Both the position numbers and the translations under genes were made by a program. 40,428 bases of DNA from Syntrophobacterales bacterium (GTDB lineage Bacteria; Desulfobacterota; Syntrophobacteria; BM002). Shown piece after piece: positions 1 to 22,462 of the stretch (the stretch's first letter is position 1; the number at the start of each line of letters is the position of its first letter). The stretch covers positions 1 through 40,428 of the forward strand of contig JASFGC010000002.1 of NCBI GenBank assembly GCA_050123975.1. The letters run 5' to 3'. The notes under the pieces were generated by a model. It made no database searches and had not been told where the DNA came from. It saw only the letters and a program-made list of their open reading frames with translations.

Positions 1-2951
1 CTTATCTCAGTGAAGTGGCAGGAATCGAACTAAGCCCTCGCTCTACCATTATGGTGGATCCCGTAACCTATGCTACTGGCAGGGAAGGCGTATTTGCCGG
101 CGGTGATGCCCACACCGGTCCCTGGGTAGCCATCGGGGCAGTGGCGCACGGCAGAGAAGCTGCCATTTCAATTCACCGTTTTCTGCAAGGCGAAGATCTG
201 CGAGCCGGTCGGGACCCTGCAGAAGTCTCGCAAGAAAATTTTATGCCCATTCCTGAAGACATCGTGCTCCAATCGCGCCCTGAGATGGCCAAAGCTGCCA
301 TGGAAAAAAGGCGTACTAGTTTTACCGAAGTGGAGCTTGGACTCACAGAAGAACAAGCCAGGGCCGATGCCGAAAGATGCCTGGACTGTATGATCTGCTG
401 TGAGTGCTATCAATGTGTGGAGGCCTGCCTGGCCGAAGCCGTTGTTCACGACCAGCAGCCTGTGGAAAGAGAGATTGACGTGGGGGCAGTTATTCTGGCG
501 TTAGGCGCGAAGACCTATGATCCCTCTGCCGTAGACTTGTACCTCTATGGCCAACATCCCAATGTGGTAACCAGCCTCGAGTTCGAGCGTATTCTGAGTG
601 CTTCCGGGCCCTATCAAGGCCATATGGTGCGACCGTCGGATGAGAAGGAGCCGGAAAAGATCGCCTGGCTCCAGTGCGTTGGTTCCCGCAACACCAACAA
701 TTGTGACAACGGTTATTGTTCTGGCGTTTGCTGCATGTACGCCATCAAAGAGGCGGTTGTTGCCAAAGAGCATAGCGACAAACCCTTGGACACCGCCATA
801 TTCTTTATGGACATGCGCACCTACGGAAAAGATTTCGAGAAATACTACAATCGGGCCAAAGATGAATTTGGAGTACGTTTCATCCGCTCCCGCATCCATA
901 CACTGTATCCAGTTCCTGATACCGATCAGTTGAGTATTGAGTATACAACTGAAGACGGAAAGATGGCCATCGAAACCTTCGACCTGGTGGTCCTCTCCGT
1001 TGGCATGGAGGTACAGCCGGAGGCTGTTGAACTGGCGGAAAAGCTGGGAATTGAACTCAATCATTACAACTTTACTGCCACCCACGAGTCTACTCCGGTG
1101 AATACCTCGAGGCCAGGGGTTTACACCTGCGGCATCTTCCAGGGACCCAAAGACATACCCATTTCGGTAATGGAGGCCAGTGCCGCGGCATCTGCAGCAG
1201 CAGCGGACCTGGCCGAGTCCAGAGGAACCATGGTGGAAGTATATGAGCCCCCGGTCGAACGGGACCTCAGCGGCGAACCACCCCGTATTGGTGTTTTTGT
1301 CTGCAACTGTGGCATCAATATCGGCTCCGTAGTGAACGTTCCCGATGTTGTTGAGTATGCCGAGACCTTACCGAATGTGGTCTTCACCGATGCCAACCTC
1401 TTCACCTGTTCCCAGGACACCCAAGAAAAAATGAGGGAAGCCATCGAAGAGAACAAGTTGAATAGGGTAGTAGTGGCTGCCTGCTCACCCCGCACCCACG
1501 AGCCCCTTTTCCAAGAGACTCTCAAAGCTTGCGGTCTCAACAAATATCTCTTCGACATGGCCAATATCCGCGATCAAGATTCCTGGGTCCACCAGCAAGA
1601 CCATGGAAAGGCCACAAACAAAGCCAAAGATCTTTTGAGGATGGCCGTGTCCCGAGCCTCCCTGCTGAGACCATTGGTAGAGCGACCCCTGGAGATCAAA
1701 CAGCGCGGCCTGGTAATTGGCGGTGGGGTGGCCGGCATGAACGCGGCCCTGAGCCTGGCGCACCAAGGTTTTGAGGCCGTAATAGTTGAAAAGGAGCGCG
1801 AACTTGGCGGCCTAGCGCGCCAGATTCCCCAAACCATAGAGGGGTGGGATGTTCAGAAATATCTAAATGATCTCATTGTCGAGGTCCAGGAAAATGACAA
1901 AATCGAGGTTCTTACCCAAGCTCTGGTCGTCGGCTCCAGCGGATATAAAGGCAACTTCACCACTGAATTACTGGTGGGGCCAGGTATGTACGAACGCAAG
2001 ATCGACCACGGGGCCACCATTGTGGCCACCGGGGCCGTGGAATACCAACCCAAGGAATTTCTCTACGGCGAGGATTCGAGAGTTATGACCCAGCTGGGTC
2101 TGAGCCAGCTATTGCACGAAAATGGTGACCAGGTTGAAAAGTGGAAAAGGGTGGTAATGGTTCAGTGCATTGGTTCCCGCAATGAAGAAAATCCAAATTG
2201 CAGCCGCATCTGCTGCCAGAATGCTGTCAAGAACAGTCTGGCACTGAAAAAAAGGAATCCTGATCTGGATGTCTATGTCCTCTATCGTGACATGCGCACC
2301 TACGGTCTTCTGGAGGACTACTATGGTGAAGCCAGAAGTAAAGGTGTCATCTTCGCCCGCTTCAGACTTGATCAACCGCCTGAGGTCATCGACGAGGGAG
2401 AAGATCTGAGGGTCACCTTCCTGGACCACGTGCTGGAGCGACCCGTAACCTTAACTGCGGATGCCCTCATTCTCAGCACTGCCACCTTGGCTGCAGACAC
2501 GGAAGAATTGGCATCTCTGCTGAAGGTTCCACGGGACACCGATGGTTTCTTTATCGAGGCCCACGCCAAGCTGAGACCGGTGGATTTCTCTTCCGAGGGT
2601 ATTTACCTCTGTGGTACCGCTCATAGTCCAAAACTCATTAGCGAAAGTATTGCCCAAGCACTGGCTGCTGCGGCCAGAGCCGGCTCCTTCCTGGCCAGTA
2701 CAGATATAACCATCGGCGGCATAGTTGCCCAAGTAGAAGAAAGCCGTTGTGCCGCTTGCCTGGTCTGCGTCAAGGCTTGTCCTTATGGAGTACCCACGAT
2801 AAACCAGGAAAATGTCTCGGAAATAAACGAGGCCCTCTGCCAAGGCTGTGGGATTTGCGCCTCTGAGTGTCCAGCCAAGGTTATTCAGTTGGCACACTAC
2901 GAGGATGACCAAATCAGCGCCAAGGTAGATGCCTTGTTTATAGGAGGATAG
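1..2951 (+). CDS. hdrA: HdrA-family flavoprotein, 5'-truncated by the window edge (end of a GltD-like NAD(P)H module followed by a full HdrA-like unit)
   Basis: The frame is open from nt 3. YLSEVAGIELSPRSTIMVDPVTYATGREGVFAGGDAHTGPWVAIGAVAHGREAAIS aligns with aa ~505-560 of the 1484-aa paralog at 17663-22117. HdrA hallmarks are present: QCVGSR..YCSGVCC and QCIGSRNE..CSRICC, CNCGINIG, a GGGVAGM Rossmann motif, and C-terminal CxxCxxC..CP / CxxCxxCxxxCP. TAG stop at 2949-2951. Confidence 0.85.
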   Translation, partial: YLSEVAGIELSPRSTIMVDPVTYATGREGVFAGGDAHTGPWVAIGAVAHGREAAISIHRFLQGEDLRAGRDPAEVSQENFMPIPEDIVLQSRPEMAKAAMEKRRTSFTEVELGLTEEQARADAERCLDCMICCECYQCVEACLAEAVVHDQQPVEREIDVGAVILALGAKTYDPSAVDLYLYGQHPNVVTSLEFERILSASGPYQGHMVRPSDEKEPEKIAWLQCVGSRNTNNCDNGYCSGVCCMYAIKEAVVAKEHSDKPLDTAIFFMDMRTYGKDFEKYYNRAKDEFGVRFIRSRIHTLYPVPDTDQLSIEYTTEDGKMAIETFDLVVLSVGMEVQPEAVELAEKLGIELNHYNFTATHESTPVNTSRPGVYTCGIFQGPKDIPISVMEASAAASAAAADLAESRGTMVEVYEPPVERDLSGEPPRIGVFVCNCGINIGSVVNVPDVVEYAETLPNVVFTDANLFTCSQDTQEKMREAIEENKLNRVVVAACSPRTHEPLFQETLKACGLNKYLFDMANIRDQDSWVHQQDHGKATNKAKDLLRMAVSRASLLRPLVERPLEIKQRGLVIGGGVAGMNAALSLAHQGFEAVIVEKERELGGLARQIPQTIEGWDVQKYLNDLIVEVQENDKIEVLTQALVVGSSGYKGNFTTELLVGPGMYERKIDHGATIVATGAVEYQPKEFLYGEDSRVMTQLGLSQLLHENGDQVEKWKRVVMVQCIGSRNEENPNCSRICCQNAVKNSLALKKRNPDLDVYVLYRDMRTYGLLEDYYGEARSKGVIFARFRLDQPPEVIDEGEDLRVTFLDHVLERPVTLTADALILSTATLAADTEELASLLKVPRDTDGFFIEAHAKLRPVDFSSEGIYLCGTAHSPKLISESIAQALAAAARAGSFLASTDITIGGIVAQVEESRCAACLVCVKACPYGVPTINQENVSEINEALCQGCGICASECPAKVIQLAHYEDDQISAKVDALFIGG

Positions 2952-2953
2952 AA

Positions 2954-3409
2954 ATGAAAGAGTTTGAACCGAATGTTGTCGCATTCTGCTGTAATTACTG
3001 AGCTTACTCTGCAGCGGACCTGGCAGGTTCCATGCGGCTGGATTATCCACCGAACGTGAAGATCATCAAGGTTCCTTGCACCGGCAGGGTTGATGTCATC
3101 CATATTTTGAAAGCTCTGGAGGACGGGGCGGATGGCGTTATGGTTGCAGGGTGCTTGGAGGGAGACTGCCATTACCAAAGCGGCAACCTCCGGGCCAAAA
3201 AGCGGGTGGCCCATGTGCAACATATCCTTGACCAAATTGGATTTAGTGGTGAACGGGTCGCCATGTATAACCTCTCCGCCGGTATGGGGGTGAGGTTTGC
3301 CGAGATAGCCCGGGAGGTCACCGAAAAAGTTAGGGAATTGGGACCTAACCCCATCAGAAGCGCGCTAGAAGCTTCAAGAGAGTCCACTAAGGAGGCAGTA
3401 CATGGTTAA
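2954..3409 (+). CDS. mvhD: MvhD-type (methyl-viologen-reducing hydrogenase delta subunit-like) [2Fe-2S] protein with an in-frame TGA read as selenocysteine
   Basis: ATG at 2954 with RBS AGGAGGA at 2942-2948. The frame reads MKEFEPNVVAFCCNY-TGA(2999-3001)-AYSAADLAGS and continues into the listed ORF 3032-3409 (..PCTGRVD..AGCLEGDCHY..). Total length is 456 nt, or 152 codons. The TGA aligns with the second Cys of CNWC in the paralog at 17628. Confidence 0.8.
2999..3031 (+). promoter_or_regulatory. UGA(Sec) plus a candidate bacterial SECIS hairpin
   Basis: 14 nt after the UGA lies GGACC(3016-3020)-UGGCA loop(3021-3025)-GGUUCC(3026-3031, one bulged U). The loop starts 19 nt after the UGA and contains GG. 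Confidence 0.5.
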
Positions 3410-4070
3410 GGCAAAACCAAAACCGATTGGCGAGATCATCGACTACGTAAAGGATTTCGACAAGGTACTGGTGGCTGGCTGTGACGGCTGTGTCACCGTA
3501 TGTGAAGCTGGCGGCTTGAAAGAGGTACAGGTGCTGGCCTCTTCCCTGCGGCTCTATTTTACCAAAGAGGGCGAAGGCAAGGATATCGAAGAGACCAGCC
3601 TGACTCGTCAGTGCGACAAAGAATACCTTGAGCCGCTGCTGGACAAGATTGATAACTATGATGCCGTGGTTTCCCTAGCCTGCGGTGTCGGCGCCCAGTT
3701 CATGGCGGAGTTGTACAAGGGTAAACCCATCTTCCCCGGAGTGGACACCTGCTTCATTGGCTCCACCCAGGAGCGGGGCGTATGGGTGGAGCGCTGCCAA
3801 GCCTGCGGCCAATGCATCATTGCGAGCACAGGGGGTATCTGCCCCATTGCCAGGTGTTCCAAACGAATGCTCAACGGCCCTTGTGGCGGCTCCGAGAAGG
3901 GCTCCTGTGAGGTGAGCAAGGATACTCCTTGCGGCTGGCACCTTATTTATGAAAGGTTGAAGGATCTGGAGCAGTTGGACCACTTTGAGGCCCCCACTGA
4001 TCCCAAGGACTGGACCACCAGCCGCGACGGTGGACCCCGCAAAATACTCAAAGAGGATGTGCAGCCATGA
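3402..4070 (+). CDS. metV: MetV, Cys-rich small subunit of methylene-tetrahydrofolate reductase (MTHFR C-terminal-domain family)
   Basis: Motifs AGCDGCVTVC, CQACGQC, CPIARC, NGPCGG and C..WH. The start overlaps the mvhD stop by 8 nt (ATGGTTAA) and the stop overlaps the metF start (ATGA). It is a paralog of 12331-13005. Confidence 0.8.
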   Translation: MVKAKPKPIGEIIDYVKDFDKVLVAGCDGCVTVCEAGGLKEVQVLASSLRLYFTKEGEGKDIEETSLTRQCDKEYLEPLLDKIDNYDAVVSLACGVGAQFMAELYKGKPIFPGVDTCFIGSTQERGVWVERCQACGQCIIASTGGICPIARCSKRMLNGPCGGSEKGSCEVSKDTPCGWHLIYERLKDLEQLDHFEAPTDPKDWTTSRDGGPRKILKEDVQP

Positions 4071-5005
4071 ATAAGACTACACCGAGCAAACTGGAAAAAA
4101 TCTTGGCAGAGGGACACTTGGCCGTTACTTCGGAATGCGGCCCGCCGCGAAACACTGATCTCGAAATAGTAGCGGAAAAGGCTGAGATGATTAAGGATCA
4201 CGTCGATGCCATAAATGTCACCGACAATCAGACATCAGTGGTACGGTTATGCAGCCTGGCCTCTTGCATTCGAATAAAACAGATGGGGTTGGAGCCGGTA
4301 TTGCAAATGGTAACCCGGGACCGCAACCGCATCGCCATTCAGAGTGACATCCTTGGTGCCTCCTCCTTTGGCATTAACAACATACTTTGTCTAACAGGAG
4401 ATCATCAGCAGTTCGGCGATCATCCCAATGCTGCCAATGTCTTTGATCTTGATTCCACTCAGTTGATCCAGACGGTCAAGTTGATGCGGGATGAGGGTAA
4501 GCTGCTGGGAGGCTTCGAAATGAAGAAGCGCCCTGAAATGTTCATTGGTGCAGCAGCCAACCCCTTTGCCGACCCCTACGAGATCAGGGTATCTCGTCTC
4601 GCCAAAAAGGTGGCCGCCGGTTGTCAGTTCATCCAGACCCAATGTATCTACAACATGGAGAAGTTTAAGCTCTGGATGGAGCAGCTGTGCGACCGGGGGC
4701 TGCATGAGAAGGTGGCCATTCTTGCCGGACTCACTCCCATGAAAAACGTGGGCATGGCCAAGTACATGAAAAATCGAGTTCCCGGCATTGATGTCCCGGA
4801 CGATATCATCGAGCGCCTGGCCGCTGTCCCCAAAGAAAAACAGGCAGACGAGGGTATCAAGATCTGCATTGAGCAAATCGAAGAATTAAAAGAAGTAGAA
4901 GGTATTAAGGGGTTTCATATCATGGCCATTGAATGGGAAGAAAAGGTTCCGGAGATAGTTGAGGCGGCAGGTCTTTATCCGAGACCCAAAGTGGATGGAA
5001 GCTAG
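4067..5005 (+). CDS. metF: Methylene-tetrahydrofolate reductase, MetF
   Basis: INVTDNQ, QMVTRDRNR, LCLTGDHQ and FIQTQCIYN are typical of anaerobe-type MetF. It is translationally coupled to metV. Confidence 0.85.
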   Translation: MNKTTPSKLEKILAEGHLAVTSECGPPRNTDLEIVAEKAEMIKDHVDAINVTDNQTSVVRLCSLASCIRIKQMGLEPVLQMVTRDRNRIAIQSDILGASSFGINNILCLTGDHQQFGDHPNAANVFDLDSTQLIQTVKLMRDEGKLLGGFEMKKRPEMFIGAAANPFADPYEIRVSRLAKKVAAGCQFIQTQCIYNMEKFKLWMEQLCDRGLHEKVAILAGLTPMKNVGMAKYMKNRVPGIDVPDDIIERLAAVPKEKQADEGIKICIEQIEELKEVEGIKGFHIMAIEWEEKVPEIVEAAGLYPRPKVDGS

Positions 5006-8315: not shown

Positions 8316-8771
8316 TTACGCTCCTGGTCCTTTTTTCTTCGGATGGCATTCGCCACAGGTTACTGGGCCCGACTGCTTTTTATTTCTAGAGAGCTGTCGA
8401 TGGCAACCTGTGCACATCCGATGGTATGCCTGCTGCAAGGTTCGTTTAGTCGGGTCCAAGTCCGGCTTGAAGCGAAAGCCGGTCTCATTCTTATGACAGG
8501 AGGCACACTGAATGCCCTCTGCATCTTCTTCAAGTTCCGCCTCGTCCACAATGTTCTCACCACCCTTAAACAGGTGGTGACAATCGCTGCACTCGATTTC
8601 GGCATCAATATGTTGCATGTGAGGAAAGGCCACCGGTGGTCGGCTACGATCAGTGAATACCGACTGGTCATCCAATAAAATATCTTCTGGCTGAGCCTCG
8701 AGATTGACCGCCCACAAGAGGCTACCTATACCCAGAATCAGCAGGCAAACCAGAAAATGTCTCCGTATCAT
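8316..8771 (-). CDS. Periplasmic tetrahaem cytochrome c3-family protein (TmcA-like)
   Basis: Four CxxCH motifs (CSDCH, CASCH, CTGCH, CGECH). N-terminal signal-like MIRRHFLVCLLILGIGSLLWA. The ATG at 8771 is preceded by GGGGAGAGG. Confidence 0.8.
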   Translation of the reverse strand: MIRRHFLVCLLILGIGSLLWAVNLEAQPEDILLDDQSVFTDRSRPPVAFPHMQHIDAEIECSDCHHLFKGGENIVDEAELEEDAEGIQCASCHKNETGFRFKPDLDPTKRTLQQAYHRMCTGCHRQLSRNKKQSGPVTCGECHPKKKGPGA

Positions 8772-8849
8772 GGTACCTCTCCCCACAAGTATATTTTACC
8801 TCACTGGTTATACAGGGCTCGATCTTCACCACAGAACGAACGGCACATA

Positions 8850-9050
8850 AGAAATCCGAAATTCGAATATCGAAACTGGGGCCCCGCCCGCAGGGTGGGG
8901 ACTCCGAAGGAGAAATCCGAAACAAATTCAAATTTTCAAAATCCACATGACCAAAACTTCAAAAACTTATATTTATTCGGCTTTGTTTTGAACATAAGAG
9001 AATTTGAAATTCGGATTTGTTTCGTGCTTCGGATTTAGGATTTCGAATTT
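8850..9050. repeat. AT-rich word-repeat block in the 344-bp spacer between the FeS-protein gene and the cytochrome c3 gene
   Basis: AAATCCGAAA/ATTCGAAT/ATCGAAAC octamer words lie on the left, and their complements (GAAATTCGGATTTGTTTCG, TTCGGATTTAGGATTTCGAATTT) on the right. CGAAACAAA (8918-8926) is complementary to TTTGTTTCG (9016-9024). A GC hairpin CCCCGCCC-GCA-GGGTGGGG sits at 8882-8900. Confidence 0.7.
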
Positions 9051-9115
9051 GGTTGCAGCTACGCTGCTCCCTGCTCTCTGCGGCTACCTCCGCTTTATTG
9101 CTACTTATGCTTGGT

Positions 9116-10414
9116 TTACTCCTCGTCTTCGTCTTCGTCCTTAGCTTTGAGTTCTTCCGGAATAATAAGAGCCTCCTCAAACATTTCTTTGAAAGAAAGC
9201 ACTTTGATGCCGAGGTCATACTCCTGGTTCAAGTCCCTCAGTTGATCGTAACAGTTGTGGCATGGGGTTATGCAAATGCTCGCTTCAGTAGCCCGAATTT
9301 GCTCTGCTTTCACTTTACCGGACCGCAGCCTTCTCTCCCTGAAAGGTCCGGCCATAGGGATGGCGCCTCCTCCACCGCCGCAGCAGAAGTTATATTCACC
9401 ATGGGGCTCCATCTCGACAAAATCCTCACAGAGGTATTTGATAACCTCCCGGGCATCCTTACCACAGCCACCGTTACGGCTGACATTGCAGGGATCCTGG
9501 TAGGTGCAACGCTCGTTAGCGAACACACTCTTATCCAGCTCGATCCTCCCCTGGCGGAGATACTCGGCAAAGAGGGTTACGCTGTGCACCACCTCAAACT
9601 TGTGGTCTCGTCCCAACCAAACAGGCGCTTCAAACTGAAGCGCACGCAGGGCGTGCCCTCATTCAGTTATGACAACGCGCTTCACCTCCAGCGCTTCAGC
9701 TGCGTCGCGAACCAATTGAGAGATATAGCCGGCAGCCTTGAGGTCGCCGGCAAACATGGCAAGGTTGGTGTCATCCCAACCCTTGCTGGACATGGTCCAA
9801 TCCTCCCCCGCCAGGTAAAAGACCATGGCAGCTTGGGAGATGTCCATGGGGTAGAACTTGGGCTCCCTGGCATTGACCGTATAAAGAACATTGGCTCCCT
9901 TCTTATCAATGGGAATAGTGGCACCCGGCAGTTCCTCCTGAAGCTCCTCCTCCATCCATTCAAGGGTGTCGATCCAGTCCTCCTCGCTCACCTCCATCTG
10001 ATTGCCATGTTTGTAATAACTCTCGATGGTTTTCACCAAGTTCTCGGGTACCTTGCCCTGAGAGACGCACAGACCCCGTCCGGTGCTGGTAATGGTGGCG
10101 ATATCGATACCAAAAGGACAGAACATGGTGCAGCGTCTACACATGGTGCAATCGCCATAGACAGTCCAGTAGAGGTCCTCGAGGAACTCCTCGTCTATCT
10201 TATCTTTCTTTTTGAAGGCCTCCAGGACTTTCTTGCCCTTTACAGCCGGGATCAGCTTTGGATCCTTATCATTGGCAAGGTAAAAGTGACAGGTGTCGGC
10301 ACAGAGGCCGCAATGGGCACAAATCTCCAACCACATTTTGAGCCGGGCATTGCTCTTTTCCTTTACCGACTTCTTGAAAGCTTCTGGGTTAAAGGCTGTT
10401 TCTTTGTCTCCCAT
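9116..10414 (-). CDS. HdrD/DsrK/TmcB-like iron-sulfur oxidoreductase (2x[4Fe-4S] plus CCG domain) with an in-frame TGA read as selenocysteine
   Basis: The listed ORFs 9659-10414 and 9116-9616 are in the same frame (1299 nt, 433 codons). The junction reads ..VKRVVITE-TGA(9659-9661)-GHALRALQFEAPVWLGRDHKFEVV.. Motifs include CAHCGLCADTC, CTMCRRCTMFCP, CTYQDPC, NFCCGGGGG and PCHNC. RBS AGGAGAG precedes the ATG at 10414. Confidence 0.8.
9625..9661 (-). promoter_or_regulatory. UGA(Sec) plus a candidate SECIS hairpin
   Basis: On the minus strand, UGA is followed after 15 nt by GCGCUUC (9643-9637), loop AGUUU (9636-9632), then GAAGCGC (9631-9625). This is a perfect 7-bp stem, and the loop starts 22 nt after the UGA. 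Confidence 0.55.
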
Positions 10415-10459: not shown

Positions 10460-11110
10460 TTACCAAGAGGGAGCACTCCGTCTGCCGAATTCCATACCCG
10501 TTACCGCCCTGGAGAAGAAAAACATGAGAAAATGGCTCAATTTGGTAAAGGGAATAACCACCAACATGAGCTCTCCAAAGAAAATATGGAGGAGCAGAAC
10601 TGTATGATAATCAAAGTATTGGTGGTAGGCGAGATAACCGGTTACAAAGGGAGCCAAGGTCACTCCTAAAAGGGCATAATCGGCCGTTGTGGTTACAACC
10701 CGCACGTAAGGAAGGAAAATACGGCGTAAGGCCAAGAAGATGCCGCAGCCGATGGTGATGAGGGTCATGTAATCGGCTAGCGTCTCCGGCAGGGACCACC
10801 AGCTAATCTCCCAGGACTCGTACCATAGCACCCCATGCGCTAGCAGAAAAAGGGGCGTCACCAGCAAGCAGAAGTGAAATAAGAACCCCACTGCTGTGGT
10901 GATGGGGTTCTTCTTAGCCGTCTCATTAAGCGGAACGATCCAATGAAATATGGAGAGCGAGAGCCACTTCCAACTGAAGAAACGGTAGACGGGTTTGTCC
11001 TTTTTCGTGCTCAAGTTGAAAAACAACACAACCCTGACCACCATCCCACCAGTAAACACCCCGAATGCCAACCACAACAAGGGACCCCGTAGCAACTCAT
11101 AAAGGCTCAT
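10460..11110 (-). CDS. Integral membrane cytochrome b-type subunit (TmcC/HmcE/DsrM, NarI-like family)
   Basis: 216 aa with about 5-6 hydrophobic helices and conserved His in the helices (FHWIVP, LFHFCLL, LAHGV, LLHIFFGE). It lies directly upstream of the HdrD-like gene. RBS GAGGAGA. Confidence 0.65.
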   Translation of the reverse strand: MSLYELLRGPLLWLAFGVFTGGMVVRVVLFFNLSTKKDKPVYRFFSWKWLSLSIFHWIVPLNETAKKNPITTAVGFLFHFCLLVTPLFLLAHGVLWYESWEISWWSLPETLADYMTLITIGCGIFLALRRIFLPYVRVVTTTADYALLGVTLAPFVTGYLAYHQYFDYHTVLLLHIFFGELMLVVIPFTKLSHFLMFFFSRAVTGMEFGRRSAPSW

Positions 11111-11407: not shown

Positions 11408-12334
11408 TTAAGATACTTCGGGACGTGGCAGCAAGCCGGCTCCGGAGACAATTTCCTCTACCCGTTCTTCCCACTCAATGGCCATTACGTGGACGCCAGC
11501 AATACCTTTCATCTCCTTCATCTCTTGGATCTGCTCGATGGCAATCTTGATGCCCTCGTCACCTTGCTTCTTCTTGTCCACTCCTTTCAAGCGAGTGATG
11601 TAGTCTTCAGGCACATCCAGACCTGGCACGAACTTTTGCATATAGCGAGCCATGCCCACTGATTTCAATGGGGTAATTCCGGCCATTACGTAACATTTCT
11701 CGGTAAGTCCCTGGTCAAAGGCCTGCTGCATGTAGGTACGGAATTTCTCCATGTTGTAGATACACTGAGTCTGGATAAAGTCCACCCCCGCATCAATCTT
11801 TTTCTTGAAACGGGTCACCCGAAAGTCGAAAGGATCAGCAAAGGGGTTGACTGCCGCCCCTATGAAGTAGTGGGGAATCCCCTCGCACTCATGATCATTG
11901 ATGAGCTTGCCCTCGTCCCGCATTTTCTTTAGCACCGCAATGAGCTGAATTGAGTCAATGTCAAAGACGTTCTTGGCCTGAGGGTGATCACCGAACTTCT
12001 GGTGGTCACCGGAGAGACAAAGCACATTCTTAATGCCCAAAGCTGAGGCACCGAGCAGATCAGCCTGAATGGCGAGCCGATTGCGGTCCCTGCAGACCAT
12101 CTGCAAATTGGGCTCAATCCCCATATCCAGCAACAGGCGGCAGACCGCCATGCTGGCCATCCGCACCACTGCAGTCTGATTATCAGTGACATTGACTGAT
12201 TCAACCATCCCCTTGAGGTATTTGGCCTTTTCGTGAATATGCCCTGCATCCGCACCACGGGGCGGCCCCAATTCACCGGTGACCGCAAAGTGTCCTGCGG
12301 CAAACATCTTTTCTAAATTGCTTTCAGCTTTCAT
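11408..12334 (-). CDS. metF: Methylene-tetrahydrofolate reductase, MetF (second copy)
   Basis: VNVTDNQ, QMVCRDRNR, LCLSGDHQ and FIQTQCIYN. It is a diverged paralog of 4067-5005, with an ATGA overlap to metV. Confidence 0.85.
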   Translation of the reverse strand: MKAESNLEKMFAAGHFAVTGELGPPRGADAGHIHEKAKYLKGMVESVNVTDNQTAVVRMASMAVCRLLLDMGIEPNLQMVCRDRNRLAIQADLLGASALGIKNVLCLSGDHQKFGDHPQAKNVFDIDSIQLIAVLKKMRDEGKLINDHECEGIPHYFIGAAVNPFADPFDFRVTRFKKKIDAGVDFIQTQCIYNMEKFRTYMQQAFDQGLTEKCYVMAGITPLKSVGMARYMQKFVPGLDVPEDYITRLKGVDKKKQGDEGIKIAIEQIQEMKEMKGIAGVHVMAIEWEERVEEIVSGAGLLPRPEVS

Positions 12335-13005
12335 TGTTTCAAATCCTCCCTGACAATCTTGCGGGGGCCACCGTCGCGGCTGGTGGTCCAGTCCTTGAAC
12401 ATGACCACGTTACCCATTTTGTCCAACTGTCCCAAACGGCTCATCCGCTCGTAGATGAGATGCCAGACGCAGTCCGTTTCGGGGTTGATCTCACATTTTC
12501 CCCCGGAGGACCCACCGCAGGGACCATTCATCAAACTCTTGGCACAGCGGGCAATGGGACACAGCGTTCCGAAATTGTGAATGCCACAGGTACCACAGGC
12601 CTGGCAGAATTCGGCCCAGACCCCATGCTCCAGAGCACCACCAATAAACGAGGTGTTGAGCATGGGGTACACCAGTACCTCTTCATACCGTTTGGCGATA
12701 TACTGGGGCCCCACGCTACAGGCCATGGACAAAATCGCATCGTAGTCACTGTTGGCAATGGGTCCCTCCAATTGGTCAATGTATTCCGGATCACACTGAC
12801 GCTCCAGCGTGATCTCATCGATTTCAATTTCCCGGCCCTCCTTCTTGCGAGCTATCTTCAGTGCCGAGGCGAGAATACCTACCTCCTTCTCACCCCCAGC
12901 GTTACAGACGGTGACACACCCTTTGCAGCCGGCGAGCAGGACTTTGTTGAAATCGGCTATCATGTCCAAAATCTCTTCAATTGGCTTTCGTTCCGCCACA
13001 ACCAT
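12331..13005 (-). CDS. metV: MetV, MTHFR small Cys-rich subunit (second copy)
   Basis: AGCKGCVTVC, CQACGTC, CPIARC and NGPCGG. RBS AGGAGGGA. Confidence 0.8.
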   Translation of the reverse strand: MVVAERKPIEEILDMIADFNKVLLAGCKGCVTVCNAGGEKEVGILASALKIARKKEGREIEIDEITLERQCDPEYIDQLEGPIANSDYDAILSMACSVGPQYIAKRYEEVLVYPMLNTSFIGGALEHGVWAEFCQACGTCGIHNFGTLCPIARCAKSLMNGPCGGSSGGKCEINPETDCVWHLIYERMSRLGQLDKMGNVVMFKDWTTSRDGGPRKIVREDLKQ

Positions 13006-13131
13006 TGGCTGTCCCTCCTTGCCGGACCATCTTTGAAAACTGACGATCGGCAGTGTGGATTATCTTGTAAACGAAAAGTCTAACTGTCTTGCGAAAGCAG
13101 ATGCTCTGCTCACCCAAAGACCGATCGCCGC

Positions 13132-13569
13132 TCAAGCGGCTTTGACTCCAGATTTTTTTCCCGAACCCACCGGGCTCGGGCCCAGTTCCTGAATACGGGT
13201 GGTAAATTCCCGAGCAAATTCGGCAAACCGGGGACCCTGGGCGGCACTGAGGTTATACATCTCCACCCGCTCGGGTTCGATGCCCATTTCCTCCAAAAGT
13301 TTTTTTACGTACTCCACCCTTTTTCTGGCCTTCAGGTTGCCGGTGAGATAGTGGCAGTCCCCTTCCAGACACCCGACCACGTAGGCTCCATCAGCTCCGT
13401 CCTCTATGGCCTTGAGCAGGTGCAGAATATCCACCCTGCCGGTGCAAGGCACGTTAATGATCCTGATATTGGTGGGATAGTTCAGTCGCATGGAACCTGC
13501 CAGGTCCGCCGCCGAGTAGCCTCAGTACATGCAACAAAACGTTACGATCTGCGGTTCAAATTCTGCCAT
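13132..13569 (-). CDS. mvhD: MvhD-type protein with an in-frame TGA read as selenocysteine (second copy)
   Basis: On the minus strand, the ATG at 13569 reads MAEFEPQIVTFCCMY-TGA(13524-13522)-GYSAADLAGS, continuing into the listed ORF that starts at 13491. Total 438 nt, or 146 codons. RBS AAGGTGGAAG. The Sec position is the same as in copy 1. Confidence 0.8.
13492..13524 (-). promoter_or_regulatory. UGA(Sec) plus a candidate SECIS hairpin
   Basis: The same GGACC-UGGCA-GGUUCC hairpin as copy 1, at 13507-13492. The 23-nt run GCGGACCTGGCAGGTTCCATGCG is identical in both copies. Confidence 0.5.
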
Positions 13570-13598
13570 GATTTCTTCCACCTTGATCTGAGTAAAGG

Positions 13599-16500
13599 TT
13601 ATGATTTCCCTGCCGCCGCTTCTCCAATCTCTTTCAAAAGCAATGCGTCAGTCTTGGCAATCAGCTGTTTATCGGTGAAGTGCTGCAGGCTGATGGCCTT
13701 GCCCGGGCATTCGGCTACACAGGCGCCGCAACCCCGACAGCCGGCCGGATCAATAACAGCGTACCCATCTTCGCCGATATAGGGCACCTCGAAGGGACAG
13801 GTGCGCACACAGGTAAGGCAAACGGCACATTTGTCCGGCTCAACCACCGCCTTCACCGCACCCAAAGTGATCACGTCCTTGGCCAGAACCGTAGAAGCCC
13901 GGGCCGCCGCCGCTTGGGCCTGGGCAATTGCCTCATCAATGGACTTGGGATAGTGGGCCAGACCGCAGAGGAAGAGGCCGTCGCTGCCAAAATCCACCGG
14001 CCGCAGCTTCATGTGGGCTTCCAGGAAAAAACCTTCTGCATTCTGGTTGACCTTGAGGGCACTAACAACCTCTCTGGCCTCATTGGGTAAGACAGCCGAA
14101 GCCAACACCAGAGCATCCGCCGGAATCACCAAATCTCTACCCAGGATGGGATCATGGATCTGGACCTTCAAGCTCCCGCTCCCGTTGCTCACCTGCGGCT
14201 TCGTGTCCAGGGAATAGCGAATAAAAAGAACTCCTTTGCCGCGGGCCTCCTTGTAAAGATCCTCGCGAAAGCCGTAGGTACGGATATCCCGGTAGAGGAT
14301 GTAGACATCCATATCGGGGTTGAGCTCCTTGAGCTGGAGGGCGCTCTCCATGGAGTGGGTGCAACATATCTTGGAGCAGTAAGGTCTCTCTTCGTCCCGA
14401 GAGCCAACGCACTGGATAAAGACTGTACGGTTCACATCTTTGAAGCCATTGCCGTCCTCTTTCAAACGGGAATCCAACTCCAGGGCAGTGAGTACCCGGT
14501 CGTCTTCTCCATAGAGATATTCTGTGGGCTGGAGCTCTTTGCCACCCGTGGCCACAATGCTGACGCCGTGCTGCACGGTGGTTTTTTGTTCAGGCTCATC
14601 AACCTTCTCCAAAATGGTATCAAAATTACCCACAAAGCCGGTGTTTGCCGCCAGTTGGGTGTTGGTGTGCACAGTAATATGCTCATGGCTCCCTACCCGG
14701 GAAACCAGATCCTTGACGTAGGAGCCGATATCTTCACCCTTCCAGGTTTTCCGGAGCTTGAGGGCGTTGCCACCCAGCTCACCGGTCTTCTCCACCAGAT
14801 GCACTGGAAAGCCCTGGTCGGCCAGGGTCAAGGCCGCCACCATACCCGCCACTCCTCCGCCTACTACCAGGGCCGCCTTGTTGAGGCCGAGGACCGTCTG
14901 TTCCAGGGGATCTAGCAAGGCGGCTTTGGCCACGGCGCCACGCACCAGGTCTTTGGCCTTTTCCGTAGCCCCTTCCGGATCGTTCTGGTGTACCCAAGTG
15001 TCTTGATCACGGATGTTGGCCATTTCAAAAAGGTATTGGTTCAGTCCTGCCTCCCGGATGGTTTCCTGGAACATGGGTTCATGGGTCCTGGGTGAACAGG
15101 AGGCCACCACCACCCGGTTGATGTCTTTTTCCTGGATCACCTCGCGAATCTTCTCTTGGGTGTCCTGGGAACAAGTAAAGAGGTTGTCTTCCACGTGCAC
15201 CACATGAGGCAAATTTTTGGCATAGTCCCGCACCGCCGGCACATCAGCATAGCCGCCGATGTTGATACCGCAATTGCAGACAAACACGCCCACCCGCGGC
15301 TCCTCCCCGGCCACCAAGCGCTCATCGGGAAGTTCCTTGGTCTTGGTCAGGGCAAAGCGGCTTTCCACCAGAGGGGCGGCGGCAGCAGCAGCAGCGGCAC
15401 TGGCCTCCATCACCGAAATGGGGATATCCTTGGGGTCGCGGAAGGCGCCGCACACGAAGATACCTTCTCTGGAGGTCTTTACCGGTTCGAAGCTGCTGGT
15501 CTCAGCAAAATTGTGCTCATTGAGCTCGATCCCCAGACGTTCAGCCAGCTCCACCGTCCGCTTGGAGGGTTGAAAGCCGGAGGAGAGCACCACCATGTCA
15601 AATTCCTCTTCCAGGGACTTGCCCTCTTCATCGGTGTAGACAATCTTCAGGCTGCCCTCTTCCACCGGGTCAACGGTGTGGACCCTGGAGCGAATAAAGC
15701 GCACCCCGTGCTCTTCCTTGGCGCGCTCGTAGTATTTTTCAAAGTCCTTGCCATAAGTGCGCATATCCATAAAGAATATGGCGGTGTCCAGGGGCTCGTG
15801 GCTGTGCTCCTTGGCAATCACCGCCTCCTTGATGGCGTACATGCAACAGACCGCCGAGCAGTAACTGTTATCACAGTGATGAATGTCTCGGGATCCCACG
15901 CATTGCAGCCAGGCGATGCTTTTGGGCTCTTCCCGGTCCCAAGGCCGCATAAGGTGTCCCTGATAGGGACCGGAGGCACTGAGAATCCTTTCGAATTCGA
16001 GACTGGTGACCACGTTGGGGTGGCCGGCGTAGGCATAGGTGTCGAATGAGGCTGGATTAAAGACCTCATTGCCGGTGGCCAAAATAACAGCGCCCACATC
16101 CAGTGTCGACCTCCGCTCCTCTTCGTCGTAAACGATGGCCTTGGCTAGACAAAGCTTCTCGCACAGGCCGCAACCGATACAGGTCTCCCGGTCAATGGCA
16201 TAGGCGAGAGGAACGGCCTGGGGATACTTGATGTAGGTGGCAGTGCGCCGGTCGAGGCCCTCGTTAAATTCGTTTACTGCAGTCACCGGACAGTGCTGTT
16301 TACAAACGCCACAACCTGTGCACTTCTCCGGGTCGATAAAGCGAGGGCGATTTACCAAATGGGCCTGAAAGCTCCCCACCTCACCCTCTACAGAGTCCAA
16401 CTCGGTGTTGCTAATAATGTTGATGTTCAGGTGTCGTCCTGCATCCACTAGCTTGGGGGAGACAATACACATGGAGCAGTCATTGGTGGGGAAGGTTTTG

Positions 16501-16658
16501 TCCAGCTGGGGCATAAGTCCCCCGATACTGGGGGAAGCGTCCACCAGATGGACGTAAAACCCGGATTCGGCCAAATCAAGGGAGGCCTGAATGCCGGCAA
16601 TGCCCGCACCAACTACCATGACCGAACCAACTTTGGAATTTCCGCTCTTGGCTGCCAT
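13599..16658 (-). CDS. hdrA: Tandem HdrA-HdrA-like flavoprotein (1019 aa, no GltD module)
   Basis: There are two HdrA units, each with a Rossmann motif (VVGAGIAG and VVGGGVAGM) and QCVGSRD..YCS..CC. Also DKTFPTNDCSMC, CNCGINIGG, VVVASCSPRTHE and C-terminal CxxCxxC..CP / CxxCxxCxxxCP. RBS GAGAGGA. Confidence 0.85.
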   Translation of the reverse strand: MAAKSGNSKVGSVMVVGAGIAGIQASLDLAESGFYVHLVDASPSIGGLMPQLDKTFPTNDCSMCIVSPKLVDAGRHLNINIISNTELDSVEGEVGSFQAHLVNRPRFIDPEKCTGCGVCKQHCPVTAVNEFNEGLDRRTATYIKYPQAVPLAYAIDRETCIGCGLCEKLCLAKAIVYDEEERRSTLDVGAVILATGNEVFNPASFDTYAYAGHPNVVTSLEFERILSASGPYQGHLMRPWDREEPKSIAWLQCVGSRDIHHCDNSYCSAVCCMYAIKEAVIAKEHSHEPLDTAIFFMDMRTYGKDFEKYYERAKEEHGVRFIRSRVHTVDPVEEGSLKIVYTDEEGKSLEEEFDMVVLSSGFQPSKRTVELAERLGIELNEHNFAETSSFEPVKTSREGIFVCGAFRDPKDIPISVMEASAAAAAAAAPLVESRFALTKTKELPDERLVAGEEPRVGVFVCNCGINIGGYADVPAVRDYAKNLPHVVHVEDNLFTCSQDTQEKIREVIQEKDINRVVVASCSPRTHEPMFQETIREAGLNQYLFEMANIRDQDTWVHQNDPEGATEKAKDLVRGAVAKAALLDPLEQTVLGLNKAALVVGGGVAGMVAALTLADQGFPVHLVEKTGELGGNALKLRKTWKGEDIGSYVKDLVSRVGSHEHITVHTNTQLAANTGFVGNFDTILEKVDEPEQKTTVQHGVSIVATGGKELQPTEYLYGEDDRVLTALELDSRLKEDGNGFKDVNRTVFIQCVGSRDEERPYCSKICCTHSMESALQLKELNPDMDVYILYRDIRTYGFREDLYKEARGKGVLFIRYSLDTKPQVSNGSGSLKVQIHDPILGRDLVIPADALVLASAVLPNEAREVVSALKVNQNAEGFFLEAHMKLRPVDFGSDGLFLCGLAHYPKSIDEAIAQAQAAAARASTVLAKDVITLGAVKAVVEPDKCAVCLTCVRTCPFEVPYIGEDGYAVIDPAGCRGCGACVAECPGKAISLQHFTDKQLIAKTDALLLKEIGEAAAGKS

Positions 16659-16749
16659 CTCTTGTATCCTCTCGATACCTTAAGTTTTCTTTGAGCTGAA
16701 GATTGGCTTTTCAGTACTTCTCTATTCGACATCCCCGCTACAGAGGGCA

Positions 16750-16855
16750 AAACAAATTCTCAACTTCAGATGTGTGATATGAGGTTCGACATTTTCCTCG
16801 GATTTAGTATCCCACATCTCACATCTCACATCTCACATCCAGGTTAAATTTGTTT
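16750..16855. repeat. Intergenic repeat block bracketed by a 9-bp inverted repeat and containing a (CACATCT)x4 heptamer array
   Basis: AAACAAATT (16750-16758) is complementary to AATTTGTTT (16847-16855). The CACATCT array at 16813-16840 has last unit CACATCC. Upstream, AGATGTGTGATATGAGG (16768-16784) is partly complementary to the array. The word CGAAACAAATT is shared with the 8850-9050 block. Confidence 0.8.
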
Positions 16856-16869
16856 CGAAATTCTTTCTT

Positions 16870-17628
16870 TTATAGAAAGATCCCAGCAAACTTCGGGGTC
16901 CGTCCTTCGTAACCGTGCAGTTCCACCTGTCCCTGCCCCTCCAGAGCCGTGAGCAGATTGGAAACGTTCTGAATACCAATGTTCGTCCGGGAATCGATCT
17001 CCCTTACGGACAAAGGTCCATCCCGCAGGCTCAGGTAGATCAAGCTCTTCTCATACTCGCTCTTTATATTCTCATCCAGCAGCTTCAGATAAGCATCCGC
17101 TTTTAGCTTTTCGCCGTAGACGTTGCCTTTCTCCGTAAGCTGTCGCTGCATTCCCATGAGCCAACGCACAGTCTCGGTTTCCAGAGTCCTAAGCATGGCT
17201 TCCAGGTTGAACTTGTTGGCCTCGGCGTCAAAGGGGCCCATTGCTTTAATCTGATCAGTTGTTTCAGTAACCAGCTCGGCAAACAGCTGCCCTTCGGCAG
17301 CGGAAACCCAAGCTAACTGCAACCGCTCCCGACCGATGCCGGCAAGATCCAGCAGATTCTGAGTAGCAAAGATCTTCTTTTCCGCGTGGAGATTACCTTC
17401 CAGGTAATGACATTCTCCTGGGTGTCAGCCGAAAACCAACGAGGCATCGTAGCCGGACTGCAGCGCTTTGACGATGAAAACCGGATCAACCCGGCCGGAA
17501 CACATGGTGCGGATAACTCGAATGGTAGATGGGTACTGGAATCTGGACACTCCGGCCAAATCCGCTCCAGCATAGGCACACCAGTTGCACAAAAACGCCA
17601 ACATCTTGGGTTCGAAACCTTCGCTCAT
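16870..17628 (-). CDS. mvhD: MvhD domain with an in-frame TGA (Sec) fused to a ~115-aa C-terminal extension ending in a winged-helix-like segment
   Basis: On the minus strand the frame reads MSEGFEPKMLAFLCNWCAYAGADLAG..MCSGRVD..SLVFG-TGA(17427-17425)-HPGECHYLEGNLHAEKKIFATQNLLDLAGIGRERLQLAWVSAAEGQ.., joining the listed ORFs 17425-17628 and 16870-17322. Total 759 nt, or 253 codons. The TGA aligns with the Cys of GC(L/H)xGDCHY in the other copies. Confidence 0.8.
17388..17427 (-). promoter_or_regulatory. UGA(Sec) plus a candidate SECIS hairpin
   Basis: On the minus strand: UGA, 16 nt, AUUACC (17408-17403), loop UGGAA (17402-17398), GGUAAU (17397-17392). An outer GGAG (17418-17415) pairs with CUCC (17391-17388). 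The loop starts 22 nt after the UGA. Confidence 0.55.
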
Positions 17629-17662
17629 ATTCCATTCTCCTGCCGCCAGCTATATCATAAGG

Positions 17663-20600
17663 TTATTCCACCGCAGCAATCGCCGCCATCAGCTGGCCGT
17701 CTTTAAAATGGAGCATATCGATGGCCTTCTGCGGACAAGTGGAGGCACACACGCCACAGCCCTTGCACGAGGCCGGTATATTGACAGCTCGATACCCTTT
17801 GCCCTCCACCTCTTCCAGTTGAATTGCGCCAAAAACGCACACCGCCTCGCACAAGCCGCAACCGATACAGGCCTCCGCATCCACGGCAGAGACGATGGGC
17901 TCCACCATGACATATTTTTGGGAAAGTACGGTGACCGCCCGACCTGCTGCCGCTTGCGCCTGGGCTATGCTCTCTTCCAGTGGCTTGGGATAATGGGCCA
18001 GCCCGCAGACAAATACCCCGTCGGTGGGGAAATCAACCGGTCTGAGCTTCATGTGCGCTTCCAAGAAGAACTTGTCATCGGTTAAGGGCAATTTGAAAGA
18101 CTTGGCAATGCCCTCATGGTCTGTAGGATGGATTGCCGTGGCCAGGTTGATAAAATCGGGCTCAATGGTTATTGGCCAGCCCAGGATGTGATCCGTCACC
18201 GTTACCTTTAACCCCCCGTTTCCATCCACCTCCACCTTCGGCTTGTCGTCGAGGCTGTAGCGAATGAAGAGAACACCTTTGGCACGGGCTTGTTGGTAGA
18301 GGTCCTCCCTGGGGCCATAGGTGCGGAGATCCCGGTAGAGGACGAACACATCCATTTCCGGATTGATCTCTTTGAGCTGCAAAGCCGACTGTACCGAGTG
18401 GGTGCAGCAGATCTTGGAACAGTAAGGTCTTTCCGGCTCCCGAGAGCCAACACACTGAATGAAAACCGCTGCTTTGGCCGTTTTGACCATCTTCGGATCG
18501 GCCTCAATGGCCTCCCCCAGCTCGTGCCAACGAAACACCCGGTCACTCTTACCGTAGAGATATTCATCCGGCGCTATCGACTGGGCCCCGGTGGCGAGGA
18601 TGGCAACACCATGCTCGATCTGCCGCTCACCGGCACCATTAGCCACTGTGCTGACAAAGTTACCTACGAAGCCACTGACGTTCTTGAGCTCAGTTTCGGT
18701 GAGAACCTCGACATTGTCATGTCCTTCCACCTTGCTCACTAGGTCGGCCACAAAAGCGGACACATCTTCACCCTTCCAGGTACGTTTGATGTGCAGGGCA
18801 TTACCACCAAGCTGTTCCTTCTTTTCCACCAGGTAGCTCTTGAAGCCTTGCTCGGCCAGATTGAGGGCCGCGGACATGCCGGCCACCCCACCACCAATAA
18901 CGAGTGCTGCCGGGTTCAGATCCACCCGAATCTCCTGAATGGGCTCAAGCAAGGAGGCCCTGGCAACGGCCATCCGTACCAAGTCCTTGGCCTTTTCCGT
19001 GGCCTTTTCGGGCTCGCTTTGGTGCACCCAGGAGTCCTGGTCGCGGATGTTGGCCATCTCAAAGAGGAATCTGTTCAGGCCAGCTTCCCTGATTGTTTCT
19101 TGAAACAAAGGCTCGTGAGTTCTAGGGGTACAGGCGGCCACCACTACTCGGTTCAAGTTGTTTTCTAGGATGGCCTCCTTCATGATCTCCTGGGTATCCT
19201 GGGAGCAGGTGAACAGGTTCTCTGCCACATAGGCTACGTTGGGCAGGGTTTCCGCAAAGGCGCGCACCGCCGGAACATCTACGATGCCGCCAATATTCAC
19301 TCCGCAATTGCAGACAAACACACCGATGCGGGGATCCTTCAGGTCAATGGAAGTCTCTTCCATAAAGGTCTTTTCTTTGACCTGTGAGCCTCGCACATCC
19401 GCCAGAAGGGATTGGGACGCCGCTGCCGCCGCGCTGGCCTCCATCACCGAGTAGGGAATATCCTTGGGACCGCTGAAAGCGCCACAGACAAAAATCCCCG
19501 GTTTGGAGGTGGCCACTGGCGCAAAAGAGCTGGCAGTAACAAACTGGTCTTCGTCCAGTTCAATGCCGAGTTTCTCAGCCAGATCGACCGTTGCAGCCGA
19601 GGTCTCCATACCCACGGAAAGCACAACCATGTCGAAAGTCTCTTTTTCGATCTTACCGTCCTCGGTGGTGTAGGTGATCTCCAGGTCACCGCTGTCGCCC
19701 ACCGGGTCGACGCTGTGCACTCGCGAGCGGACAAAACGCACTCCGATCTCGTCCTCGGCTCGCATGTAGTACTTGTCAAATTCCTTGCCATAGGTTCGCA
19801 TATCCATAAAAAAGATGGCGGTATCCAAAGGTTGCTTGCTATGCTCTTTGGCAATTACCGCCTCCTTGATGGCGTACATGCAGCAGACGCCAGAACAGTA
19901 GCCGTGATCGCACTGATTGATGTCACGGGAGCCCACACATTGTAGCCAGGCGATTTTCTTGGGTTCTTTGGCATCCGAAGGCCGAATGAGATGACCTTCG
20001 TAAGGGCCGGATGCACTGAGGATACGTTCAAATTCCATACTGGTAACCACATTGGGATATCTGGCGTAATTGTAGGTGTGGTATTGACTGGGGTTGAAGG
20101 CTTGAAAGCCGGGCGCGGCTATGATTGAGCCGACATCGAGGGTGACTGTGGTTTCCAGCATACTGTGATCCACGGCTTCCGCCTTGCAGGCGGTCACGCA
20201 TTCAAGGCATTCGCAACAGGACATGCAGTTGAGACATTTCTCCGCCTCGGCTCTGGCCTGTTCTTCGGTGAGCCCAAGCTCCACTTCGGCAAAATTTGTC
20301 CGCCTCTCGTCACTGGCCAGTGTGGGCATTTCAGCCCGAGCGCTCATCTCCAGATCTTCGGGTATTGCCACGAAGTTCTCCTGAGGGAACTCCACGGGTT
20401 CCCGACCTGCCCTCAGGTCTGCACCCCGCAGGTAGCGTGAAATAGAAATGGCTGCTTCCCTCCCATGCGCTACCGCACCAATAGCCACCCAGGGCCCGGT
20501 GTGGGCATCGCCACCAGCAAACACTCCCTCCACAGTGGTGGCAAAGGTCACAGGATCGGCGTCAATGGTACCCCAGCGGCTGAGCGCCAGCCCTGAATCG

Positions 20601-22117: not shown

Positions 22118-22422
22118 AGATCACACTCCTATGAGAGATGATTTCTCCTGAATGTTTCTGAGCTGGATTATCACGTATTTTTCCACAACAACTTGGAACA
22201 CTTTTGGAAAGATTCAGTATTATAGCCCAAAGAGTACGTGAGGAAAAGCACAAAATAGGTCACCTGGAAGCAAAAAAGATAAGTGTTAGCAACTTCACGC
22301 TGTTAAACCCATATACCTGGATATCTGCGACCGAGGCTTCCTCGGAACCCACCGTTATGCAGGCCAGACAAGCTACAGGTACAGCTTGAGGCGGGAATCT
22401 TATCTGCCGTGGATATTTGCGC

Positions 22423-22446
22423 GCCCTCCCCTGTGAGGGGGAGGGC
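22423..22446 (-). terminator. GC-rich hairpin 17 nt after the folD stop
   Basis: GCCCTCCCC (22423-22431), a 6-nt loop, then GGGGAGGGC (22438-22446). No U-tract, so termination is uncertain. Confidence 0.35.
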
Positions 22447-22462
22447 AATCGGTTTTGCAACT

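Follow-up and report, generated by a model that had tools for sequence, protein, structure and literature searches.

We analysed a 40,428-nucleotide stretch of DNA (contig JASFGC010000002.1 of GenBank assembly GCA_050123975.1, forward strand), hereafter the window, from an uncultured wetland bacterium of the class Syntrophobacteria. On its minus strand, a gene at 10414..9116 encodes an iron-sulfur (Fe-S) protein resembling TmcB and HmcF, and its reading frame contains an in-frame UGA at 9661..9659. We are highly confident that this gene encodes a single polypeptide, which serves as the cytoplasmic Fe-S/CCG component of a transmembrane redox complex of the TmcC-TmcB-TmcA type. Judging from comparative sequence data, the UGA is very probably read as selenocysteine (Sec).

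A single reading frame interrupted by one UGA

Two listed open reading frames (ORFs) on the minus strand, 9659-10414 and 9116-9616, share a common frame. When TGA is translated as U, the stretch 10414..9116 yields a product of 432 residues, or 433 codons including the stop. The coding sequence starts with ATG at 10414, a few bases downstream of an AGGAGA ribosome-binding site, and stops with TAA. Its sole internal stop is the TGA at 9661..9659, which is codon 252 and lies in the context RVVITE-U-GHALRAL. The features of the gene are as follows:

9116..10414, minus strand: coding sequence of the TmcB/HmcF-like Fe-S/CCG protein, 432 residues, predicted Sec at 252 (frame, translation, Pfam, NCBIfam, full-length homologs and AlphaFold model)
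9659..9661, minus strand: in-frame UGA, codon 252, motif E-U-G-H (invariant Cys column, TGA in 18 orthologs, RNA and DNA contigs)
9625..9643, minus strand: putative selenocysteine insertion sequence (SECIS) hairpin (present in all 18 TGA forms, frozen synonymous sites, covariation)

The translated product has two CxxCxxCxxxC motifs of the ferredoxin type expected to bind [4Fe-4S] clusters (C32-C42 and C89-C99) and one complete CCG-type cysteine set made up of CTYQDPC, CCGGGG and PCHNC. A first-pass annotation, made from the sequence without database searches, had joined the two ORFs into one HdrD-like protein of 433 codons with these same motifs and with the junction RVVITE-U-GHALRAL. Its coordinates and frame were confirmed, all of the motifs were located in the translation, and the junction was reproduced by translating TGA as U. 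Pfam assigned the product a 4Fe-4S dicluster domain (Fer4_8) and a CCG domain. The best near-full-length NCBIfam matches were HmcF (465 bits) and TmcB (416 bits), followed by DsrK (217 bits). The two best scores are below the equivalog cut-offs of 750 for HmcF (NF045711) and 735 for TmcB (NF045724). Given near-full-length matches that fall below these cut-offs, we call the protein TmcB/HmcF-like rather than an equivalog of either.

The UGA occupies an invariant cysteine column

A database search returned 2209 relatives, the best 120 of which were 406-470 residues long. In an alignment of 50 full-length homologs with the query, positions T250, E251, C252, G253, H254 and A255 were invariant, with the UGA of the query standing in the column of C252. 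Every full-length database relative was a Cys form, including the closest ones at 76-80% identity. This is as expected because gene callers cut Sec-type tmcB genes into two ORFs, and the Sec forms are therefore absent from protein databases. The first-pass annotation had staked its proposal on homologs not being two separate polypeptides and on the aligned column being Cys or Sec. The aligned homologs are all single chains of about 430 residues and the column is Cys, as it is also in the DsrK encoded by the same genome.

These data bear on whether the locus might encode two polypeptides, with a 251-residue ferredoxin-like protein ending at the UGA and a 166-residue CCG protein starting from TTG at 9616, resembling an HdrC/HdrB split. 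A mechanical ORF list does give two ORFs, such splits exist in the superfamily, and there are matches in the Protein Data Bank (PDB) to separate HdrC and HdrB chains. However, the 42 nucleotides between the two ORFs encode GHALRALQFEAPVW, a stretch that all homologs conserve as protein and in which orthologs differ by synonymous changes. No AGGAGG-like ribosome-binding site was seen upstream of TTG 9616, single chains account for 50/50 aligned homologs, and in every case the TGA coincides exactly with the invariant Cys. We therefore consider separate polypeptides very improbable, and a single chain remains our reading of the locus.

Orthologs were sought by six-frame search of 60 related genomes and then of a phylum-wide sample. 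Among the 60 genomes, 11 orthologs from the same genus or family (81-93% identity) had an in-frame TGA at codon 252, as did two from another family, f4 (56-57% identity), while 17 orthologs had TGC or TGT. The phylum-wide sample contributed five further TGA forms from family f37 (64-65% identity) together with one Cys form of that same family. In total, 18 orthologs from three families (f1, f4 and f37) carry TGA at this column. The in-frame UGA aligns with the Cys or Sec of its homologs, which is the pattern of a bacterial selenoprotein. Which codon related genomes use here had been posed as a check by the first-pass annotation, and the answer is twofold: at the same syntenic locus, orthologs have either TGA followed by a hairpin or TGC/TGT without one.

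Many phylum-wide HmcF/TmcB-like matches at 40-46% identity were also flagged as having one TGA. Among the 11 of these that were checked, no Sec was found at the E-C-G-H column, which was Cys in all of them, and the TGAs inside the alignment were located at or near the gene end with one exception. In this sample, the TmcB clade has predicted Sec at this column in f1, f4 and f37 only. Separately, an HmcF-like gene with 45% identity (L153, minus strand of contig G248:C192) has a TGA at the second Cys of its first ferredoxin motif (TWLEICAH-*-AICAESCF). Here Sec may serve as the ligand of an Fe-S cluster, or the gene may be a pseudogene.

A conserved hairpin follows the UGA

The hairpin proposed by the first-pass annotation, GCGCUUC-AGUUU-GAAGCGC, is present at 9643..9625. 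It is composed of a 5' arm at 9643-9636 (GCGCUUCA), a loop at 9635-9633 (GUU) and a 3' arm at 9632-9625 (UGAAGCGC), with the stem beginning 15 nucleotides after the UGA. It can be drawn either with 7 base pairs and the loop AGUUU or with 8 base pairs and the loop GUU. In the drawing with the five-nucleotide loop, the loop begins 22 nucleotides after the UGA, as originally claimed. The 15-nucleotide spacing and the geometry match the distance window usual for bacterial SECIS elements.

The hairpin was kept in 18/18 TGA forms and was missing from 23/23 Cys forms checked, the one from f37 included. At the same site, the Cys forms read RSL(K/Q)FES, RSAKFEG and similar, and both arms are broken. 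Among the 11 close Sec orthologs, 22 of the 261 amino-acid-invariant degenerate codons (8.4%) were identical in all sequences. Six of these frozen codons are consecutive, at +6 to +11 after the UGA (GCG CUU CAG UUU GAA GCG), and they coincide exactly with the hairpin. No frozen block of this kind was found among the Cys orthologs. The flanking codons (GGN, CUG/UUG/CUU, CGU/CGC and CCN) vary freely among the Sec orthologs, and this synonymous variation implies that the stretch 3' of the TGA is translated in this frame.

Covariation provided a further line of evidence. Across 14 distinct sequences from three families, the 8-base-pair helix was 97.3% paired, versus 10-47% when the 3' partners were slid. 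Compensatory changes were observed at 2/8 pairs: in f37 a G-C pair became C-G, and in f4 the closing pair changed from A-U to G-C. The GUU loop was kept across the hairpins, including the covarying hairpin of f37. The element is thus a stem-loop located just 3' of the UGA, with a G in its apical loop and a conserved structure. These results support the view that it behaves like a bacterial SECIS, given its fixed position, apical G, covariation and synonymous constraint. The SECIS prediction called for by the first-pass annotation was accordingly borne out by a hairpin that is conserved, covarying and specific to TGA forms.

Authenticity, transcription and decoding of the UGA

We also considered whether the TGA might mark a pseudogene or a sequencing or assembly error, arising from a single TGY-to-TGA change in a Cys-type tmcB. 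One substitution is enough to turn TGC or TGT into TGA, the closest database proteins (76-80% identity) have Cys, and the source is a fragmented metagenome-assembled genome (441 contigs, 86.6% complete). Nevertheless, the stretch was found in more than 20 public wetland runs, contigs from two independent DNA runs cover the gene with 0 differences, and one metatranscriptome contig spans 9016-11500, again with 0 differences. The identity of the RNA contig and both DNA contigs indicates that the TGA is not an assembly error. Moreover, 18 orthologs belonging to other species-level genomes share this TGA, purifying selection is evident over the remainder of the gene, and the hairpin is specific to TGA forms. 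An error or a decayed gene is scarcely credible in light of this evidence. The metatranscriptome also establishes transcription of the locus jointly with tmcC and the metF 3' end.

The genome encodes the complete set of components for Sec insertion. A tRNA-Sec with anticodon TCA is present in the assembly, as are SelA (630 bits), SelB (396 bits) and SelD (375 bits), all scoring over their family cut-offs. The hairpin at 9643..9625 would act as the SECIS that recruits SelB-GTP-Sec-tRNA(Sec) to the ribosome. The claim of the first-pass annotation, that this is a probable Sec-containing CCG-domain oxidoreductase, is supported by the Cys column, the TGA orthologs, the hairpin and the full Sec machinery. 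The selD gene itself (contig C169:4244-5167, minus strand, locus L036) has an in-frame TGA and encodes a Sec-type selenophosphate synthetase. Genome-wide reassignment of TGA was considered and rejected, as TGA is a normal stop in 7/24 long ORFs of the window.

Several points weigh against our reading. The protein scores under the NCBIfam equivalog cut-offs for both TmcB and HmcF. The fold of the single hairpin sequence is unremarkable (z = -1.65 versus shuffles), so the argument rests on the comparative data. An Rfam scan of the window returned no family at the gathering threshold, although bacterial SECIS elements are not known to have an Rfam model. Finally, the residue inserted at 252 is a prediction from sequence and transcription.

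This last point leaves room for the UGA to be read through as something other than Sec. Near-cognate or suppressor decoding could insert Cys or Trp, or tRNA(Sec) could deliver Cys under selenium limitation. In other systems, the Sec pathway is known to insert Cys when selenium runs short. Against such decoding, the SelA/SelB/SelD/tRNA-Sec set is complete, a hairpin of the SelB type has been conserved with the canonical spacing, and the UGA stands in a column of redox Cys, as it does in known selenoproteins. In addition, TGA serves as an ordinary stop in 7/24 neighbouring ORFs. We deem it very unlikely that a residue other than Sec is inserted, and refer to the predicted residue as Sec252 below.

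Predicted role of residue 252

In an AlphaFold (AF2) model of the protein, with a mean predicted local distance difference test score (pLDDT) of 88.4, residue 252 is positioned right after the strand 246-249 and at the start of the helix 253-267. This setting is mirrored by the strand 380-383 and the helix 386-398, which bear the CxxC of the true CCG domain. The model fold matched Mycobacterium smegmatis EtfD (Foldseek probability 1.00, TM-score 0.67), LutA and HdrB. In a sequence search of the PDB, EtfD (9ojn) alone matched across the CCG region, and the search reached neither HdrB nor any DsrK chain. By sequence alignment, C252 corresponds to the leading Cys of the CPHC that EtfD has in its first CCG domain.

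HdrB/HdrD and EtfD (PDB 5odc_B and 9ojn) share the fold, with residue 252 falling on the first Cys of the CxxC of their first CCG motif. They differ in having two complete CCG motifs, and HdrB holds two non-cubane clusters, whereas the degenerate first half-domain here keeps none of the cluster ligands but residue 252. Within residues ~175-255, residue 252 is the sole Cys-type residue, and H254 is invariant in the homologs. Because this region has no other Cys, residue 252 is the lone survivor of the ligands of the distal non-cubane cluster of HdrB.

A similar reduction has been described for DsrK. According to a cryo-electron microscopy (cryo-EM) preprint on DsrMKJOP (10.64898/2026.08.25.746951), DsrK has a single non-cubane cluster, and its distal-cluster ligands are replaced save for the strictly conserved Cys329. 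That residue is non-ligating, shows persulfide density, is located between DsrC Cys114 and the cluster, and was proposed to act as a sulfur relay. His331, at +2 of Cys329, is conserved among single-cluster relatives (10.64898/2026.08.25.746951). The DsrK of our own genome (C67:7230-8654; 720 bits, over the cut-off) reads E-C-G-H at the column aligned with E-U-G-H. Based on the C-x-H motif, we infer that Sec252 is equivalent to A. fulgidus DsrK Cys329 with its His331. This agrees with the expectation of the first-pass annotation that a Sec beside the non-cubane cluster domain would sit at a site of thiol/disulfide chemistry.

Sec252 would accordingly act as relay or nucleophile in an active site like that of DsrK. 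In the mechanism that we envisage, a substrate, presumably a disulfide or of persulfide type, would be exchanged between Sec252 and the non-cubane cluster, whose ligands are C303/C309/C344/C345/C385/C388, and electrons would pass via the two cubane clusters to the hemes of TmcC and to TmcA. Selenium would be the better nucleophile and leaving group at the exchange step. This assignment is tempered by two considerations. The equivalence with Cys329 was drawn through the motif and an alignment to the genome's own DsrK. TmcB keeps the CxxC where DsrK has Asp for one ligand, so the chemistry need not match.

If the equivalence is correct, Sec sits on the very residue that the 2026 DsrMKJOP structures mark as the non-ligating sulfur-relay Cys of enzymes that have only one non-cubane cluster. 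The occurrence of Sec and Cys orthologs at one locus within one genus offers a ready comparison of the role of this residue and of what selenium contributes.

Relation to known families

Sec in the UGH motif of Fe-S oxidoreductase (GlpC)-like proteins has been known since 2006. Zhang et al. (2006, PMC1794560) listed 'Fe-S oxidoreductase (GlpC)' as a bacterial selenoprotein family, and a 2026 review (PMC13188914) gives its Sec motif as UGH. The protein described here shares with that family the architecture of two ferredoxin-type clusters plus CCG, as well as Sec at the same column in a U-G-H motif; it has the di-cluster region, the CCG domain and the predicted Sec in U-G-H. Unlike that family, it forms the cytoplasmic part of a membrane module encoded by tmcC-tmcB-tmcA.

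Relatives of this genome also have a paralogous clade with P-E-U-G-H-A-Y at the same column and 32-39% identity. We took this soluble U-G-H paralog clade to represent the described GlpC-like members and made the comparison with it. A branch of 1.39 substitutions per site with support of 100/100 separates it from the TmcB/HmcF clade, and its SECIS differs (GCGACCAGGCUUGGUCUGC). Our gene falls outside both the clade and the SECIS lineage of these soluble paralogs. Its own genome has a second U-G-H gene (C67:392-1375, minus strand, locus L139) that is about 6 kb from dsrK and encodes a product of ~430 residues with a CCG domain and the motif LNTE-U-GHELFAV. L139 is a member of this paralogous clade, which we treat as GlpC/HdrD-like.

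The best family matches are two Desulfovibrio vulgaris subunits, TmcB from the TmcABCD complex and HmcF from the Hmc complex, and the neighbours are likewise TmcC and a type-c3 tetraheme cytochrome. As in those systems, the gene adjoins a membrane cytochrome b subunit and a periplasmic multiheme cytochrome c. There are differences as well: the gene order is C-B-A, no TmcD-like gene was identified, the module is located inside an hdrA-mvhD-metVF ... cooC Wood-Ljungdahl cluster, and Sec replaces the Cys of E-C-G-H.

The protein resembles DsrK in having two cubane clusters and one complete CCG site, with the distal site reduced to a single Cys-type residue and a His at +2. However, it is only 25% identical to the genome's own DsrK and its family score of 217 bits is short of the cut-off of 400. 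It also keeps C385-x-x-C388 where its own DsrK reads C-I-C-A-I-D. The partners of DsrK are DsrM/J/O/P rather than TmcC/TmcA, and the residue in question is Cys in DsrK but Sec here.

A literature search combining selenocysteine with TmcB, HmcF or DsrK/CCG found no paper describing a Sec-containing TmcB or HmcF, and papers that mention both TmcB and selenocysteine do not include TmcB among their selenoproteins. The Desulfobacterium autotrophicum genome paper, for example, reports Sec-containing hdrD4 and hdrF2 and does not list TmcB. What is new here is a TmcB/HmcF-like membrane-complex subfamily, with its own covarying SECIS lineage, that is added to the UGH family. This finding does not overturn current understanding. 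It is useful for annotation and would be unsurprising to a specialist.

Evolution of the selenocysteine and cysteine forms

In a maximum-likelihood tree of the TmcB-like clade, Sec forms appeared in three places: a 10-member group that includes the window's gene, one lone Sec form, and the pair from family f4. The lone Sec form branches as the sister of a group of nine Cys forms from the same genus. The simplest reading of these sequences is that a Sec ancestor in the genus or family underwent at least one in-place replacement of Sec by Cys. The order hdrA-metV-metF-tmcC-tmcB-tmcA-cooC-purH' is common to the Sec and Cys orthologs of the genus, and their shared syntenic slot makes them positional orthologs. 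On a longer time scale, the hairpin core UUCA-GUU-UGAA is near-identical in f1, f4 and f37, which suggests either one old origin of this putative SECIS or its transfer, followed by repeated losses.

Two genomes (G006 and G011) have both a Sec-type tmcB at the syntenic locus and a second, Cys-type copy with 78-79% identity (L052 and L054). The context of these Cys copies is without tmcC, tmcA and metVF, and they may be a selenium-independent backup. Backup pairs of Sec and Cys forms have been discussed in the D. autotrophicum genome paper. In the window's own genome, only the Sec copy was seen, at 86.6% completeness.

Genomic context

The neighbours of the Sec gene in the window are as follows:

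10460..11110, minus strand: tmcC, membrane cytochrome b-type anchor subunit, directly upstream of the Sec gene (NF045723, 241.7 bits versus a cut-off of 240)
8316..8786, minus strand: tmcA-like periplasmic tetraheme cytochrome c3, downstream (Pfam Cytochrom_CIII, 1.6e-14; TmcA 84.8 bits versus a cut-off of 114)
12331-13005, minus strand: metV, methylene-tetrahydrofolate reductase (Pfam MTHFR / DUF5981, metVF together)
11408-12334, minus strand: metF, directly upstream of tmcC (Pfam MTHFR / DUF5981, metVF together)
2999-3001 (plus strand), 13524-13522 (minus strand) and 17427-17425 (minus strand): in-frame TGAs, each with a hairpin, in small MvhD/FrhD-like genes adjoining HdrA/HdrL-like giants

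The tmcC-tmcB pair was kept in every ortholog locus reaching upstream, and the tmcA-like gene downstream is conserved across the genus. The order hdrA-mvhD-metV-metF-tmcC-tmcB-tmcA-cooC was kept throughout the genus. In family f37, metV-metF are directly beside the Sec-type tmcB in convergent orientation (L146 and L147), so the association of methylene-tetrahydrofolate reductase with Tmc recurs.

These observations raise the possibility that TmcCBA is a dedicated membrane partner of MetVF/HdrA/MvhD, as opposed to being a generic electron conduit from the periplasm to DsrC. It would then link the Wood-Ljungdahl methyl branch to the pool of quinones or periplasmic cytochromes, with Sec252 handling a disulfide or persulfide bound to protein. 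This partnership fits the conserved gene order, the presence of metVF beside tmcB in f37, and the RNA contig joining metF to tmcB, but it is speculative and we think it rather unlikely. Were it true, the alternation of Sec and Cys within the genus would be a natural tuning to selenium supply.

The window holds two units composed of hdrA-like, Sec-type mvhD, metV and metF genes, at 3-5005 (plus strand) and 11408-23350 (minus strand). The minus-strand unit additionally includes folD, a 1484-residue HdrL-like fusion that contains a GltD-type NAD(P)H module, the tmcCBA genes and an ATPase of the cooC/acsF type. Together, the two units constitute a Wood-Ljungdahl methyl-branch redox cluster. Among the three MvhD-like TGA sites, two are at CC(M/N)Y-U and one is at another Cys position, VFG-U-HPGECHY, and the hairpins that follow them are comparable to that of tmcB. 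By these sequence features, four or more selenoprotein genes are predicted in the window.

In one RNA run and two DNA runs, the spacer that separates tmcB from tmcA (8866-9087) had a k-mer depth 3- to 18-fold higher than that of the sequence on either side. Contigs break at this spacer with several alternative joints, marking it as a repeated element with many copies in the community or genome.

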